Shown here piece by piece: positions 36,266 through 40,923 of a stretch of DNA of 64,000 nucleotides. A program made the position numbers and the translations under genes. The number at the start of each line of letters is the position of its first letter. Within the stretch, counting starts at the first letter, position 1. The stretch is taken from sequence record MN508624.2. One strand, given 5' to 3'. The notes beneath the pieces are model-generated. The model did not search any database. It was not told where the DNA came from and saw only the letters and a program-made list of their open reading frames with translations. The DNA is from Enterobacter phage EC-F2.

Positions 36266-36658
36266 TCAAGTTATCTCATACCAGCATAAGCTACGCTCAA
36301 AAGCGCGGATCTTATTTGCGTTCTCGATATTTTCATCCCATCCAATCACGCCAGCTTTCATCCGGCGTAACTCCTGACGCATTTTAGCGCGTACTTTCGA
36401 ATCAATCTTTTTCACAGCGATTGAAAGCATCGCGGAGATATCACGATGAGCTTTGTTACCGTCGCGATTCAGGTTTTTATCGAACCGGATATATGCACAA
36501 CCTGATTTGTGTTTCCAGTTGGTTGTATACCAACGTAAACCATCAGAACTTTCCCCGTGCTGTGCATAATACTCTGAAAATGCTTTTGTCTCTTCGATCT
36601 GTTCGATGGAGGACTTATCACGGACTGGAACATATTTCTTACGGTAAGTACGGCTCAT
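36266..36658 (-). CDS. hypothetical basic protein (130 aa)
   Basis: ORF. Confidence 0.5.
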   Translation of the reverse strand: MSRTYRKKYVPVRDKSSIEQIEETKAFSEYYAQHGESSDGLRWYTTNWKHKSGCAYIRFDKNLNRDGNKAHRDISAMLSIAVKKIDSKVRAKMRQELRRMKAGVIGWDENIENANKIRAFERSLCWYEIT

Positions 36659-36688: not shown

Positions 36689-37243
36689 TTAACAGTTCAG
36701 ACCAACATTATCAAGAAGTTTTTCGTGATAATGTTTGCGACAGAGCGAAACGTATTTGTCTTCGGCTCCGATCTCAACCTGCTCCCCTTCGGTTACGAAG
36801 TTGCCTTGTGCGTCGATACGTGCAACCGTAGTTGCTTTGCTTCCACAGTGACACATTCCGCGCAGTTCTCGGATCTCGTCTGCCCAGGCCAACAACCAGT
36901 AAGAACCCTCGAACAGATTCAACTGGAAATCAGTACGCAGACCGTAAGCCATTACAGGGATTTCGAGTTCGTCAACAACGCGACATAGATCGAAAACATT
37001 TTTCTTCGAAAGGAATTGCGCCTCGTCAACGAAGATGCAAGCAATTTTATTCCGGCGCTGAATGTCCCAGAACAGATCCATATCAGGCGCAATCAATTGA
37101 CACTTTTCGTTCAGCCCGATACGCGAACTCACTGTGTTTGATGTGCGGGTGTCGATTGCTGGCTTATAGATTACAACACGCATACCGCGTTCTTTGTAAT
37201 TGTGCGCGTCCGTCAACAGTCGCGCACTCTTTCCAGCGTTCAT
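36689..37243 (-). CDS. tk: thymidine kinase (ATG MNAGKS start; may extend to a TTG at 37273)
   Basis: MNAGKSARLL P-loop, VDEAQF, VMAYGLRTDF, CHCG...SLCRKHY zinc ribbon. Co-linear with T4 Tk. Confidence 0.85.
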   Translation of the reverse strand: MNAGKSARLLTDAHNYKERGMRVVIYKPAIDTRTSNTVSSRIGLNEKCQLIAPDMDLFWDIQRRNKIACIFVDEAQFLSKKNVFDLCRVVDELEIPVMAYGLRTDFQLNLFEGSYWLLAWADEIRELRGMCHCGSKATTVARIDAQGNFVTEGEQVEIGAEDKYVSLCRKHYHEKLLDNVGLNC

Positions 37244-37265
37244 TGATGCATAGTGATAATACAAT

Positions 37266-37481
37266 TTAGCCAATTGTAAACCATCCTTTACCCATGAGTT
37301 TTTTGTTACGTCGCGCAAGATGCTCTTTGATTTCCGGCATCTGGATAGCAATATCATACTCTTCTTTCGTCATGGTATGATTTGCGCAACCCATACACCC
37401 GCACACCTGCGCGTTACACCAACGGAGTGTTCCGTATGTCGCAATCACCTTCATTGCTTTAGCTTTGATTTTGTCAGTCAT
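37266..37481 (-). CDS. hypothetical Cys-rich small protein (CNAQVCGCMGC)
   Basis: ORF. Start trimmed to avoid overlap with the upstream gene. Confidence 0.4.
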   Translation of the reverse strand: MTDKIKAKAMKVIATYGTLRWCNAQVCGCMGCANHTMTKEEYDIAIQMPEIKEHLARRNKKLMGKGWFTIG

Positions 37482-37761
37482 GATTATAACCGCCCATTTC
37501 GCTATCTTGTGCTTTATGGATATCAAGATACCACATATTGATTTTGCTTTTCAGTTCGCCCATTTCTTTATCCAGTCCTTCATCAACAAGACAAAGAATG
37601 TCAACCACCGTTTTACGCTGTGTGATGTTGATTTTGTTCGCTTTCATGGACTGCGCCAGCGCTTCACAGGTTTTCACCAGTGCGGCGCGTTGTCCTTTGA
37701 TTGCGGCGATCCGTTTGTTCGCTTTCTTGATCGCCCGACCTGCTTTGATAGGATCAATCAT
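37474..37761 (-). CDS. hypothetical protein (95 aa)
   Basis: ORF. Confidence 0.45.
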   Translation of the reverse strand: MIDPIKAGRAIKKANKRIAAIKGQRAALVKTCEALAQSMKANKINITQRKTVVDILCLVDEGLDKEMGELKSKINMWYLDIHKAQDSEMGGYNHD

Positions 37762-37966
37762 GATTAGCTCGCTCCACTGCTACCGCATCACGAACAGCAT
37801 CTTCGATTTCATTTTCAACGAAATCCAGGATATCCGCTGTAATGTCGTCGATACAGGATTGATTGTAGTTGCGTGAATCAGGATCATCATCTTCGGCATA
37901 ATCCTGATACGCTTCGCCCAGTTGTTTCAGTTTATGTTTTAACAGCTTTTGTTCTTGTGGTCTCAT
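37754..37966 (-). CDS. hypothetical acidic protein (70 aa)
   Basis: ORF. Confidence 0.45.
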   Translation of the reverse strand: MRPQEQKLLKHKLKQLGEAYQDYAEDDDPDSRNYNQSCIDDITADILDFVENEIEDAVRDAVAVERANHD

Positions 37967-38139
37967 TCTCTCGCCTCTTTACGTCCGGCATCAACCAGAT
38001 CATCCACAAAGCTAACGATATCATCCCACCAATCCAGCGCTTCCTGTGATGCTTTCGCGTCACCATCAAGGAAACGGTCACGAGCGCTCGCAAACTTCTC
38101 TATTTTGCTATAGAGCTTTTCTTTATTTGCTTCAATCAT
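37967..38139 (-). CDS. hypothetical 56-aa protein (not in track)
   Basis: ATGA overlaps at both ends (38136-38139 and 37966-37969). Confidence 0.35.
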
Positions 38140-38633
38140 GATAAGTCCGCCTTACGTGGATCAACCGATGGATCGAAGTGAACGACGATGATCGGGTAAT
38201 CTCCCGTACACTCGTCAATAATAGCGCTAATACGCAACCAATCGCCCCCAGCAAGCCCCGCACCGATAAGAGGGGTAATGATAGGCAATTTTTCAGGAAA
38301 CGCACTGGCGCGTTCTACGGCGCTCACAAAGCATGACCGGATTGCATCATAATCCACTTGTGGGCCAGTACCCCAGAATTTAAACTGAGTGTAGGCATTG
38401 AAGACAATCTGACCTTCTTCCGTCATGTAGATGGAGTTAGTGCCTAACTTCCGCTGATCGCCTTTCATAGTCAGTGCATCAATTTTGAACGCACCAGGGA
38501 TTTTGTGCTTCACTTCTTTAGCAATACCCGCGCCCATGTTGCAATAACAGTTACACCCATGAATCAAGTGTACTTTTCGTTTCAGGAACAACTCTACAGC
38601 GTTCCCTTTGATTTCTTTAATAATCATTTTCAT
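38136..38633 (-). CDS. macrodomain (ADP-ribose binding/hydrolase) protein
   Basis: HGCNCYCNMGAGIAKEV and PLIGAGLAGGDW match macrodomain Gly-rich motifs. Confidence 0.65.
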   Translation of the reverse strand: MKMIIKEIKGNAVELFLKRKVHLIHGCNCYCNMGAGIAKEVKHKIPGAFKIDALTMKGDQRKLGTNSIYMTEEGQIVFNAYTQFKFWGTGPQVDYDAIRSCFVSAVERASAFPEKLPIITPLIGAGLAGGDWLRISAIIDECTGDYPIIVVHFDPSVDPRKADLS

Positions 38634-38715
38634 CACCTGTATAGTGGCGGTAAGCCAGCACAGCCAGCCCCGCGATCACAACCACAACACACATTAAGAT
38701 ATAACCTGTGTTCAT
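38618..38715 (-). CDS. 32-aa single-TM micro-protein (MNTGYILMCVVVVIAGLAVLAYRHY...)
   Basis: Translationally coupled upstream of the macro gene. Confidence 0.35.
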
Positions 38716-38848
38716 TTAAATTGGTCATCCCATCTTTGCCACGCTTCCAACTCGTCATCATACACAGGGAACGAGGTTTCGTTTGGCTGTTTAACGTAAT
38801 ACCAGATAATGATTGCAGCAGCAATCACACACCCATAAAAGATCACTA
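38713..38848 (-). CDS. 45-aa single-TM micro-protein (MLGLVIFYGCVIAAAIIIWYY...)
   Basis: ATGA overlap with the next ORF. Confidence 0.35.
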
Positions 38849-38857
38849 ATCCCAACA

Positions 38858-39178
38858 TCAGTATAATCCTATGCCAGCAACATATTCATCAACCAGGTAA
38901 GTACGGAGTTTTTCACAACGTTCCTTATTTGGCGCATTGGTACAGAGGTTCATCATTGGTTCAGACTGTAAAAACTCATGCAGTTTAACCAACTTCTGAC
39001 GCTTGAAGAGGTGCGCGTTTTCTTCGCCCCACACATAAGCCGCGTCCAGTTGTTCGGCAATCACCTGTTCACATACCGCAACGTCTTTAATGTCACGATT
39101 ATTGCAGAGTTCAGCCAGTCGATCATCAGCATGAGCAAAGCCAGCAAACAGAGTGAGTAACAGCGCAAGTTTTTTCAT
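38858..39178 (-). CDS. secreted hypothetical protein (signal peptide ...AHA|DD; 4 Cys)
   Basis: Signal peptide. Confidence 0.5.
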   Translation of the reverse strand: MKKLALLLTLFAGFAHADDRLAELCNNRDIKDVAVCEQVIAEQLDAAYVWGEENAHLFKRQKLVKLHEFLQSEPMMNLCTNAPNKERCEKLRTYLVDEYVAGIGLY

Positions 39179-39187
39179 CGTTTTACC

Positions 39188-39799
39188 TTAGTATGAATCG
39201 TTTTCGATAGGGGTATAATAATGGGTTTCACAGACATACGCAAGCACTGATCGCAAACTATCGCTTTCAAATTCTGGCTTTTGATTGCGTTTCAGGCTCC
39301 AGCCAGTGAAACACATCCAGCGTTCTTCTGCAACGTCAAATGCTAACCAGTACGTATTGAACTCTGAACATGTATGTTCGAAGATATCGAACAGTAATTT
39401 ACCGCCGATCGGCTTCACATATGGCTTCACGCGTTGAAGCGATTTCAGAACTGATTCGAGGTTACTGCGATCCTCATTCATCGCAATACGGAGAATATGC
39501 TGATTGGTTTCTGGGTTATACCCATCGATCGCAAGTCCCATATCCTGGAAGAACTTAGTCGCATCACGGAAAATTTCATGTCCGCTGTTCGGTGAATTGA
39601 TGTAAAACTCCATACGTTGTTTTGGAGTCATCGCACGGACGCGGGACGCGGTAGCCTTGTCGATCTCTTCTTTGATCTCCTGACGGCCTTTCAGTAACCC
39701 GTTCAGCTTTTCCTGATAGGGTTTCATTACCGCCCTGATCTCGTCGATACGTTCATCAACGATCGCTAACTGCTGTTCCGGTGTCAGTTTAGTTTCCAT
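39188..39799 (-). CDS. hypothetical protein (203 aa)
   Basis: ORF. Confidence 0.55.
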   Translation of the reverse strand: METKLTPEQQLAIVDERIDEIRAVMKPYQEKLNGLLKGRQEIKEEIDKATASRVRAMTPKQRMEFYINSPNSGHEIFRDATKFFQDMGLAIDGYNPETNQHILRIAMNEDRSNLESVLKSLQRVKPYVKPIGGKLLFDIFEHTCSEFNTYWLAFDVAEERWMCFTGWSLKRNQKPEFESDSLRSVLAYVCETHYYTPIENDSY

Positions 39800-39800
39800 G

Positions 39801-40205
39801 TTAAGCCCCTACGCGCACAAAGCGATCTTCAATTGCATCATTAACACATTCGTAAATGCTAACGTCATTCGGGACGTGCTTACGAATACCCACTTTCACG
39901 ATATCCATGATCTCTTTGTTGCTACCCCACACGTTCAGGTTGAAGTAAACACCGCCGCTATGAATTGTGTTGTTGCCAACATCAAGATACGTATCTTGAC
40001 TTTCGCAGATAAACAGTTTGCGTTTTTCTTCACCATATGCGAAGTAAATGCTGAAAGATTCCATGCGATGACGATCGACCGTGATGGTGTCTACTTTAAC
40101 CTTTGGATCTTTGTTCAGTTCGTCCAGCACACCCTGAATGATGTGCAGCATGTTAGGCTTGATGATAGTTGGATGACTGGTAATAACTCGATGTGATGTG
40201 CTCAT
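39801..40205 (-). CDS. hypothetical protein (134 aa)
   Basis: ORF downstream of a PeSL cassette. Confidence 0.5.
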   Translation of the reverse strand: MSTSHRVITSHPTIIKPNMLHIIQGVLDELNKDPKVKVDTITVDRHRMESFSIYFAYGEEKRKLFICESQDTYLDVGNNTIHSGGVYFNLNVWGSNKEIMDIVKVGIRKHVPNDVSIYECVNDAIEDRFVRVGA

Positions 40206-40221
40206 AATTTAATCCTCAATA

Positions 40222-40270
40222 GTTGGTACACACATAATAAAAAAGCCCCTGCGAAATTGCAAGGGCTTTT
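40222..40270 (-). repeat. PeSL-like cassette (hairpin gcccctgcgaaattgcaagggc; variant leader)
   Basis: Same hairpin family. Confidence 0.5.
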
Positions 40271-40272
40271 TA

Positions 40273-40923
40273 TCAGATAATGCGTTTTTCTTCTAACAGC
40301 TTCGCGGTATGGTTAACCATGCGAGCGTAATCACGGGCTTCTTTCTTTGAATACTTGAATCCCGCGTTGTAACTCGCCAGCGCCTTTTTCAAGTCGCCTT
40401 TGTGGTAATCAAGCCAGTATTCCAGTTCGTGAAGTGCATACTTGGAACCACCCCGAAGGGTTTCGAGCTTATTGATTACTACGCGTTTGGAATATGATTT
40501 ATCCATTCGTGCGGACGCGCTACGGGCTGTTACTTGAAAACAACCATAAGCATGATGATTCTTTTTGCCTTTCCCTACGTTCTCACATGCGCGAGACTCG
40601 ATCCAGGCAATAGCCGCTAAATGATATCCCAAACGTTTCGATGTTTCCGATTCAACTGGCTTTGCAGTTTTGAGATCGTATTCGTTACCGATCCTGAAAG
40701 CGTACTCCAAAACCTTTTTCTGCTTTGGTGTAATATCATCCAATTCCTTAACATAACTGGGGGCATTGGCTGGCGCTTTCTTCATTACTGTTGCTTGTTG
40801 TAGCGGTAAAGTTGACTTCACAGAAGGGAGTGTTTGGATAAACTCTCCTAACGGATCAGTCGCCGCGTTGCCAGAAAAAGAGCATAAGGCAACAACAAAA
40901 GGTAGTATCCATTTGAATTTCAT
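40273..40923 (-). CDS. soluble lytic transglycosylase (SLT-domain) with signal peptide
   Basis: Signal peptide MKFKWILPFVVALCSFSGNAA, then WIESRA...YGCFQV (catalytic Glu plus GLMQ-like motif). Confidence 0.6.
   Translation of the reverse strand: MKFKWILPFVVALCSFSGNAATDPLGEFIQTLPSVKSTLPLQQATVMKKAPANAPSYVKELDDITPKQKKVLEYAFRIGNEYDLKTAKPVESETSKRLGYHLAAIAWIESRACENVGKGKKNHHAYGCFQVTARSASARMDKSYSKRVVINKLETLRGGSKYALHELEYWLDYHKGDLKKALASYNAGFKYSKKEARDYARMVNHTAKLLEEKRII

Follow-up and report, generated by a model that had tools for sequence, protein, structure and literature searches.

How should a small phage macrodomain protein be understood when its gene stands in a tightly packed row directly behind two genes for membrane micro-proteins: what does it do in the infected cell, and are the micro-proteins its partners? 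We address this question for a 64,000-nucleotide stretch of Enterobacter phage EC-F2 (sequence record MN508624.2), further referred to as the window, in which the macrodomain gene (38136-38627) is preceded by open reading frames (ORFs) of 32 amino acids (aa; 38617-38715) and 48 aa (38712-38858) and by the gene of a signal-peptide protein homologous to T4 Vs (38858-39178). These genes, as well as every other gene treated here (vs.1 to tk region), are located on the minus strand. The window comes from a T4-like Pseudotevenvirus of about 97% identity to Enterobacter phages Nando and EBPL; megablast of positions 37400-40300 gave 173 phage records, the best of which (95-98% identity) are Enterobacter phages Nando and EBPL, Citrobacter phages Citrof4 and Maroon (the latter classified as Straboviridae; Pseudotevenvirus), and Cronobacter and Klebsiella phages. 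We consider it probable, taking the explanation as a whole, that the macrodomain protein is an anti-DarTG2 factor of the type named AdfM in T4, and that the micro-proteins are independent of it and linked with vs instead.

The macrodomain ORF was given as 38136-38636 by the ORF lister. The starts GTG 38636 and ATG 38633 were considered and discarded in favour of ATG 38627, because the latter provides a 163-aa protein with the conserved MIIKE N-terminus and is preceded, 5 nucleotides (nt) upstream, by a Shine-Dalgarno sequence, AGGTGA, read from the sequence at 38638-38633 within the 32-aa ORF. The N-terminus MIIKEIKGNAV is kept in Lw1, GuL6 and Slopekvirus, and T4 Tk.4 begins with MIVKYIKGDIV. 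Homologues of the protein were found by tblastn in 2,945 phage records. Pfam Macro (PF01661), a precomputed annotation of most homologues, matches residues 25-135 of the window protein with 27.6 bits (cut-off 22, E 3e-6); the protein also matches phrog_335, labelled 'phosphatase', at 1e-59. In the AlphaFold2 model (predicted local distance difference test, pLDDT, 94.1; predicted template modelling score, pTM, 0.90) the three-layer alpha/beta/alpha organization of the macro fold is present. The macrodomain recognized in the sequence-only reading, a model's first annotation of this DNA, is therefore confirmed by the Pfam hidden Markov model, by profile search and by the predicted fold.

As for the class of the macrodomain, Foldseek comparison of the model with the PDB placed TARG1, Poa1p, BT1257, DarG and SCO6735 on top (probability 1.00, TM-score 0.63-0.82), with viral and MacroD-type macrodomains only lower in the list. 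A PDB search with a profile built from 40 sequences matched BT1257 (4e-17), SCO6735 (1.5e-15), DarG of M. tuberculosis (2e-11) and of T. aquaticus (2e-10), TARG1 (6e-10) and Poa1p (1e-9), while a search with the single sequence gave weak matches only (E about 1e-5). All 15 profile matches belong to the ALC1-like class (TARG1/DarG/SCO6735/Poa1p), not to MacroD, PARG or viral Mac1, and we confidently place the protein, as a stand-alone macrodomain, in the TARG1/DarG/SCO6735 (ALC1-like) class. Membership in the DarG family itself was rejected, as the NCBIfam model NF048014 gave 23.9 bits against a cut-off of 250 and aligned only over profile positions 11-155 of 338, the C-terminal domain being missing. 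Among the neighbours of the macrodomain gene there is no ADP-ribosyltransferase (ART) gene.

The closest counterpart of known function is found in bacteriophage T4. The window protein and T4 Tk.4 share 36% identity over 157 of 163 residues (E 4e-30), and Tk.4 searched against the window returned the macrodomain ORF as its sole match. The order of T4 genes is vs.1, vs, tk.4, tk.3, tk.2, tk.1, tk, with an ATGA overlap of vs and tk.4, and the order in T6 is identical; the slot of the macrodomain gene between vs and tk is thus common to the window and T4-like genomes. Judged by reciprocal matching and gene order, the gene is the syntenic, full-length orthologue of T4 tk.4 (adfM). We also noticed that the protein is 45-53% identical to stand-alone bacterial macrodomains of 151 aa (Nonlabens, Rufibacter, Roseimicrobium) versus 36% to Tk.4, which hints at phage-bacteria exchange or at fast divergence within T4-like phages. 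Another side observation concerns RB43 (L005, NC_007023.1), in which a frameshift inside the HGCNC motif splits the macrodomain gene into ORFs of 30 aa (1736-1828) and 132 aa (1830-2228); in the near-identical GuL6 the gene is intact (162 aa), and the split may reflect either a sequencing error or a pseudogene.

In the HIDEN-SEQ transposon screen tk.4 was the single significant hit on a DarTG2 host, and a clean tk.4 knockout makes T4 sensitive to DarTG2; the product was named AdfM, anti-DarT factor Macrodomain, and was proposed to strip ADP-ribose from DNA enzymatically (bioRxiv 10.1101/2025.11.20.689424). T4 devoid of adfA and adfN is still resistant to DarTG2, and a further factor had been predicted (PMC11825919). 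A macrodomain of the chimallivirus PhiKZ, also named AdfM, protects against DarTG2 as well (PMC13309987). The phenotype on DarTG hosts, proposed as a check in the sequence-only reading, has in effect already been obtained, for the T4 orthologue Tk.4/AdfM. According to the mechanism we propose, the window protein would most likely be produced at an early stage of infection, its template being a polycistronic mRNA on which ribosomes may pass from gene to gene via the overlaps, the macrodomain gene having also its own strong Shine-Dalgarno sequence. The protein would then remove the ADP-ribose put by the host toxin DarT2 on thymidines of single-stranded phage DNA, and in this way replication would be restored and the DarTG2 defence defeated.

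The active site agrees with such an activity and points to its probable chemistry. Two residues, N26 and Q81, do not vary among 40 homologues. Q81 lies in the invariant motif YTQ, the aligned counterparts of which are FPTK in DarG (with the catalytic Lys80) and IGQ in SCO6735 (Gln85) and BT1257; N26 lies in the invariant HGCN, aligned with HVCN of SCO6735 (Asn27). The protein therefore carries the trait of the SCO6735/BT1257 subclass, i.e. Gln at the position taken by Lys80 in DarG and Lys84 in TARG1, together with Asn in the H-x-C-N motif. SCO6735 cleaves the thymidine-ADP-ribose (ADPr) made on DNA by DarT, its Q85A variant being inactive and N27S nearly inactive (PMC9411070). Probably the chemistry here is likewise Gln-based and lysine-independent, with Q81 positioning the distal ribose and N26 positioning Q81. 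In the loop following the Gln, BT1257 and SCO6735 need about three inserted residues relative to the phage family profile and DarG needs none, a comparison made in the profile alignment only; it suggests a shorter loop of DarG length in the window protein, the 'mobile loop' of SCO6735/BT1257 being five residues longer than that of DarG/TARG1. A Gln-type (SCO6735-like) rather than a Lys-type DarG active site in the phage AdfM family is a concrete biochemical prediction.

Alternatively, the protein might serve metabolic or housekeeping needs as an ADP-ribose-1''-phosphate phosphatase, an O-acetyl-ADP-ribose deacetylase or an eraser tuning the phage's own ARTs (Alt/ModA/ModB-type). The T4 annotation 'A1pp phosphatase motif', the presence of Poa1p among the best sequence and fold matches (a similarity only) and the name 'O-acetyl-ADP-ribose deacetylase' given to homologues in some sources would all fit. 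Such names are, however, homology transfers, no genetic phenotype except sensitivity to DarTG2 has been reported for the T4 orthologue, and the N/Q pair matches that of SCO6735, a highly active thymidine-ADPr DNA hydrolase (PMC9411070). We find a metabolic role rather improbable as the main one, and it should be kept in mind that these activities are not mutually exclusive.

Turning to the micro-proteins, the first question is whether their ORFs are genes. The 48-aa ORF matches phrog_10683 over its whole length (E 1e-35, positions 1-48 of 48) and was found in 61 phage records at 70-100% identity, genus-wide, including RB43, RB16, Lw1, Miller, CfP1, IME-CF2 and GuL6. When Pseudotevenvirus species were compared by the Nei-Gojobori method, the proportion of synonymous differences (pS) was 0.61-0.84 and that of nonsynonymous ones (pN) 0.07-0.18, with dN/dS of about 0.03-0.08 where computable, and 19-24 of 28-42 differences occupied third codon positions. 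Both shifted frames gave pN equal to or higher than pS. Two loci, L001 and L002, are left out of the dN/dS table; tblastn confirms the 48-aa ORF in both. The 32-aa ORF matches phrog_34526 (E 1e-26, positions 1-32 of 32) and is present in 44 phage records (tblastn). Its homologues in Yersinia phage JC221 and contig L020 (MTTEYVILSLVVCVVGILVICFRSKMDDYDNDY and MYPIFLLVVCIAGLIAAIVIGSVVDDIENDY) have a transmembrane segment and an acidic ...NDY end, and they overlap the macrodomain start by the same 11 nt as in the window. In RB43, Lw1, Miller, GuL6 and CfP1 the same position is occupied by a 31-aa transmembrane peptide of very different sequence (MSIGLQFALLISAVILMGLVIGIGYKMGNKE), for which pS was 0.51-0.55 versus pN of 0.12-0.13, from small counts, and the shifted frames look non-coding.

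Hydrophobicity is a constant feature of these peptides. The Kyte-Doolittle mean over a 17-residue stretch is 2.77 for the 48-aa and 2.91 for the 32-aa peptide, and every micro-protein variant, except the truncated L018 call, has a 17-residue segment with a mean of at least 2.1. The 48-aa peptide is built of an N-terminal transmembrane helix and a tail with the conserved motif VYDDELEAW. A profile search of this family against 5.8 billion proteins gave 18 clusters only, none with a Pfam domain and none with annotated relatives; all named members are proteins of T4-like phages, and the contigs examined are T4-like, too. Its distant members, a 47-aa group (MIWF.LMVIIIVLLILRWRKVERDRKKWDVVYDDELQYW...) and Pantoea phage Phynn, retain a hydrophobic helix at the N-terminus together with a W...Y-DDE motif that does not vary; Y-DDE is invariant in the distant member L018, too. 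In distant members an Arg/Lys cluster directly follows the helix, which, by the positive-inside rule, suggests an N-out/C-in topology with cytoplasmic acidic tails. Pfam and NCBIfam searches with the micro-proteins, and with Vs and the 203-aa and 134-aa ORFs located further upstream, gave nothing meaningful (PetG, PIP-CTERM, RecN and viperin, all far below the cut-offs).

Given their frame-specific conservation, we regard both micro-ORFs as genuine phage-specific genes under selection, the products of which may be inner-membrane anchors with a function separate from the macrodomain. The sequence-only reading, which had described transmembrane peptides of 45 and 32 aa and made their conservation in related phages a point to be checked, holds in most of these respects: the 61 and 44 records and the purifying selection agree with it and the 32-aa peptide is as described, while the longer one has 48 aa rather than 45, and the end coordinate given, 38848, cuts off 10 nt of it. 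It also proved right about the 63-aa ORF with a TTG start (38633-38824), which it held to be in the wrong frame. This ORF was rejected as a gene: its frame is shifted by +1 relative to the 48-aa ORF and by +2 relative to the 32-aa ORF, and in both cases pN equals or exceeds pS.

Are these peptides, then, partners of the macrodomain protein, as the sequence-only reading implied? Comparison of related genomes argues against it. In T4, T6 and Marfavirus Potts1 vs is directly followed by an overlapping macrodomain gene and there are no micro-ORFs, and in Moonvirus Merlin and an Aeromonas phage a signal-peptide protein of 134-140 aa stands upstream of the macrodomain gene instead. The reverse case is represented by Citrobacter phage Miller (L007, 1172-2121), with vs and ORFs of 48, 31 and 58 aa and no macrodomain gene at this locus, which was the only one examined, and by contigs L023 (755-2862) and L024 (2032-4154), where no macrodomain gene was found between vs and tk. 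The order in both contigs is vs, a 49-aa ORF, a 47-aa YDDEL peptide, a gap, three other ORFs and tk. If no copy is present elsewhere, Miller and the phages of these contigs are natural 'ΔadfM' relatives and should be sensitive to DarTG2. In Slopekviruses vs is followed by two unrelated micro-ORFs, of 38 and about 41 aa, each encoding a transmembrane peptide. About 45 nt of intergenic sequence separate the second of them from a 62-aa gene, homologous to the 58-aa ORF which in the window lies downstream of the macrodomain gene, and only then comes the macrodomain gene.

Overall, the table of presence and absence indicates that small genes between vs.1 and tk come and go independently, the recurrent arrangement being Vs followed by one to three transmembrane micro-proteins. 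By this comparison the peptides track vs more than the macrodomain gene, with one exception, Phynn, where a YDDE peptide is found near the macrodomain gene and no recognisable Vs is present. The micro-proteins would thus belong to a variable set of small genes following the signal-peptide protein Vs. The comparative evidence speaks against an obligate link, and a functional partnership with the macrodomain is improbable.

Some small ORFs noticed in these relatives are worth recording. The overlapping micro-ORF pair of Slopekviruses (38 aa, MAIWIFIIMAAVVVFLAY..., and about 41 aa, MMTMFSAGYFIGVVIGFIIFGGVLY...) is located at 1052-1277 in Klebsiella phage KP1LMA (L009), in which the second one is unannotated, and at 2824-3049 in L016 and L017. 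In Yersinia phage JC221 (L019, 2314-2511) the 183-nt 'gap' separating vs and the macrodomain gene is devoid of called genes. It nevertheless contains a transmembrane ORF of about 30 aa, which has a GTG start and overlaps the stop of vs, as well as a homologue (33 aa) of the 32-aa peptide of the window.

The contrary view is that the two membrane micro-proteins belong with the macrodomain in a single module. The peptides would then tether or activate the macrodomain or localise it to the inner membrane, for example close to where DNA enters or is replicated, or they would sense a membrane-linked defence to be counteracted by the macrodomain. Start/stop overlaps do join the three genes. The Vs and 48-aa ORFs share 1 nt (TGATG), the 48-aa and 32-aa ORFs share 4 nt (ATGA), and the 32-aa ORF overlaps the macrodomain start by 11 nt (ATGATTATTAA); the ATGA/TAATG pattern given in the sequence-only reading does not simply apply to the last of these. 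Moreover, in five diverged lineages, those of the window and RB43 types, JC221, L020 and L018, the macrodomain start is directly overlapped by a transmembrane micro-ORF, and the conserved, probably cytoplasmic YDDEL-x-W motif of the 48-aa family looks like a binding motif. The overlaps make translational coupling of the macrodomain gene with the micro-ORFs plausible. They are, however, a habit of the whole early operon and carry no specific information on a link of the Vs-side peptides with the macrodomain, because all genes of the operon overlap their neighbours. The macrodomain gene is not the last one of the chain, as had been thought: its stop overlaps the start of the 58-aa ORF (ATGA at 38136-38139), and a row of ORFs (58, 70, 95 and about 71 aa), each overlapping the next, runs on to tk. 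The whole unit measures about 4 kb and comprises 12 genes, with the macrodomain gene in its middle, and nearly every stop in it overlaps the next start.

Besides the overlaps, T4 AdfM acts without such peptides, Miller, L023 and L024 retain the peptides with no macrodomain gene at the locus, Slopekvirus separates them, and the second micro-ORF diverges almost past recognition between species in which the macrodomain protein stays 74-80% identical. A common module is, in our estimation, unlikely. Equally unlikely seems its more specific form, in which the 48-aa peptide ('TM + YDDEL-x-W', TM standing for the transmembrane helix), the next transmembrane peptide and the periplasmic, disulfide-containing Vs would make an inner-membrane module setting the dose or place of AdfM in the lineages where the genes are chained. 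If it were true, AdfM could be brought to the membrane, the place where single-stranded DNA meets DarT2 on injection or during replication, and the micro-proteins would represent a novel class of membrane effectors of phages or of accessories to anti-defence.

The preferred explanation, an AdfM-type anti-DarTG2 macrodomain accompanied by independent, vs-linked micro-proteins, has to be weighed against several points. The T4 protein which was tested is only 36% identical to the putative AdfM of the window, which is closer (45-53%) to bacterial stand-alone macrodomains. The T4 evidence comes from a preprint, where hydrolysis by AdfM is itself inferred. Further substrates of macrodomains of this class are protein-Glu-ADPr, O-acetyl-ADP-ribose and ADP-ribose-1''-phosphate, and the specificity here could be different or broader. 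The overlap of a micro-ORF with the macrodomain start in the five lineages mentioned could reflect a link of function or expression, and the lack of a macrodomain gene in Miller concerns this locus, not the whole genome.

The macrodomain protein might also counter some other NAD- or ADP-ribose-based defence, such as Thoeris signals or RNA- and protein-targeting ARTs (e.g. CmdTAC), by binding or hydrolysing the ADP-ribose signal or adduct. Macrodomains in general bind ADP-ribose derivatives, and there is a weak similarity to the ThsA_Macro domain of Thoeris (PF20016; E 0.009). The latter was rejected as an assignment, its score of 16.2 bits being under the cut-off of 25. The nearest structures and profiles belong to the TARG1/DarG class, the members of which hydrolyse ADPr on DNA and protein, the T4 screen picked tk.4 specifically with DarTG2, and T4, which possesses Tk.4, is still strongly restricted by CmdTAC (PMC11618068). 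In the CmdTAC paper (PMC11618068) we found no link to a phage macrodomain. Altogether we consider this possibility very doubtful. The last alternative, that the micro-ORFs are non-coding spacers which only carry ribosomes from vs to the macrodomain gene, is hardly credible: they are very short, and the second one diverges strongly and yet keeps its position and length, but purifying selection is frame-specific (strong on the 48-aa ORF, moderate on the 31-aa ORF), transmembrane hydrophobicity is conserved across variants that cannot be aligned, the YDDEL motif is kept down to relatives of 19-27% identity, and the micro-ORFs persist where no macrodomain gene is available for coupling.

The protein encoded at 38858-39178, described before as secreted, indeed has a signal peptide and was identified as a 106-aa homologue of Vs, the valyl-tRNA synthetase modifier. 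It matches phrog_1256 (1e-21) and, by BLASTP, T4 Vs (27% identity, E 3e-4), both having a signal-peptide-like N-terminus; the Pfam scan of this Vs homologue gave no match, and its relatives on other contigs carry PF26829 (ValRS_modifier). The N-terminal Sec-type signal peptide (MKKLALLLTLFAGFAHA, followed by DD) and four cysteines are conserved up to T4 vs (L003, 4387-4734, minus strand). Such features are unexpected in a protein described as binding a synthetase of the cytoplasm. T4 vs is conditionally needed in minimal medium, as reported in the HIDEN-SEQ preprint (bioRxiv 10.1101/2025.11.20.689424).

The transcription unit is delimited by two intrinsic terminators, the strongest ones of the region, with stems of 13 and 8 pairs, respectively. 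The upstream boundary (40271-40240) follows the gene of a vs.1-like SLT protein (40273-40923), and in Maroon a terminator is annotated at the same place; the downstream one (36241-36223) is situated after tk (36689-37273) and a 130-aa ORF (36266-36658), and an equivalent terminator is annotated in Maroon, too. A promoter-like sequence, TTGCAA-17-TATTAT, overlaps the upstream terminator at 40234-40271 (minus strand), and thus signals of termination and re-initiation share the same 38 nt. The unit opens with ORFs of 134 aa (39801-40205) and 203 aa (39188-39799), located between vs.1 and vs and having no T4 counterpart and no Pfam or NCBIfam match. The label 'S-adenosylmethionine decarboxylase', given to the 134-aa ORF in one GenBank record, could not be substantiated; the 203-aa gene is missing from Lw1, Miller and CfP1. 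Downstream of the macrodomain gene, the 58-aa ORF (37963-38139; phrog_19420), the ATG of which overlaps the macrodomain stop, is missing in several close relatives and stands upstream of the macrodomain gene in Slopekvirus. It is followed by ORFs of 70 aa (37754-37966), 95 aa (37474-37761) and about 71 aa (37266-37481), the last one adjoining tk on its upstream side. No family match was found for the ORF of about 71 aa, which has a Cys-rich motif, WCNAQVCGCMGCANH, and is conserved in L013 and L018; it may encode a small metal-binding protein.

Obtained results would extend the AdfM counter-defence from T4 to Pseudotevenviruses, the hosts of which include Enterobacter, Klebsiella, Citrobacter and Cronobacter and which are candidates for phage therapy, and they would correct the widespread database label 'phosphatase'. 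Two selected families of membrane micro-proteins appear to travel with vs and not with the macrodomain, which turns future work away from a presumed macrodomain-peptide complex; the reality of the micro-proteins and their association with vs are modest additions. The macrodomain gene adds a new, putative member to a family for which the function became known from publications of 2025-2026. GenBank already contains near-identical genomes in which these ORFs are annotated, and the locus is ordinary and largely explained, with nothing that overturns current understanding.

Among known systems, T4 Tk.4/AdfM shares its genomic setting with the window protein. Both are stand-alone proteins of about 155-163 aa with the N-terminus MI[IV]K.IKG and the motifs HGCNC, YTQ and IGAG, encoded in the vs-tk slot of an early operon; the T4 gene, however, overlaps vs directly, whereas in the window two transmembrane micro-ORFs are placed between them, and the downstream neighbours differ. 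SCO6735 of Streptomyces coelicolor and BT1257 of Bacteroides thetaiotaomicron (PDB 5E3B and 2FG1/2AFC) are the best PDB matches and have the same replacement of the catalytic Lys by Gln, but they are cellular proteins of about 25% identity with extra residues in the loop after the Gln. DarG of DarTG2 (PDB 5M3E, 5M3I, 7OMU) shares the fold and class, the alignment of the NCBIfam DarG model over the macrodomain part and, presumably, the removal of thymidine-ADPr from single-stranded DNA; unlike DarG, the window protein is devoid of the C-terminal DarT-binding domain (163 aa versus 338 profile positions), carries Gln in place of Lys80 and has no paired toxin. The micro-proteins of the window are full-length members of the phrog_10683 and phrog_34526 families, which, with ORF149c of RB43, are annotated as hypothetical in many GenBank records and are confined to T4-like phages. 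Finally, PhiKZ gp104, the chimallivirus AdfM (Cell Rep 2026, PMC13309987), is another phage DarG2-like macrodomain protecting against DarTG2; it belongs to another lineage of phages and enters the phage nucleus by import, and it is likened to the window protein by its role, not by sequence comparison.

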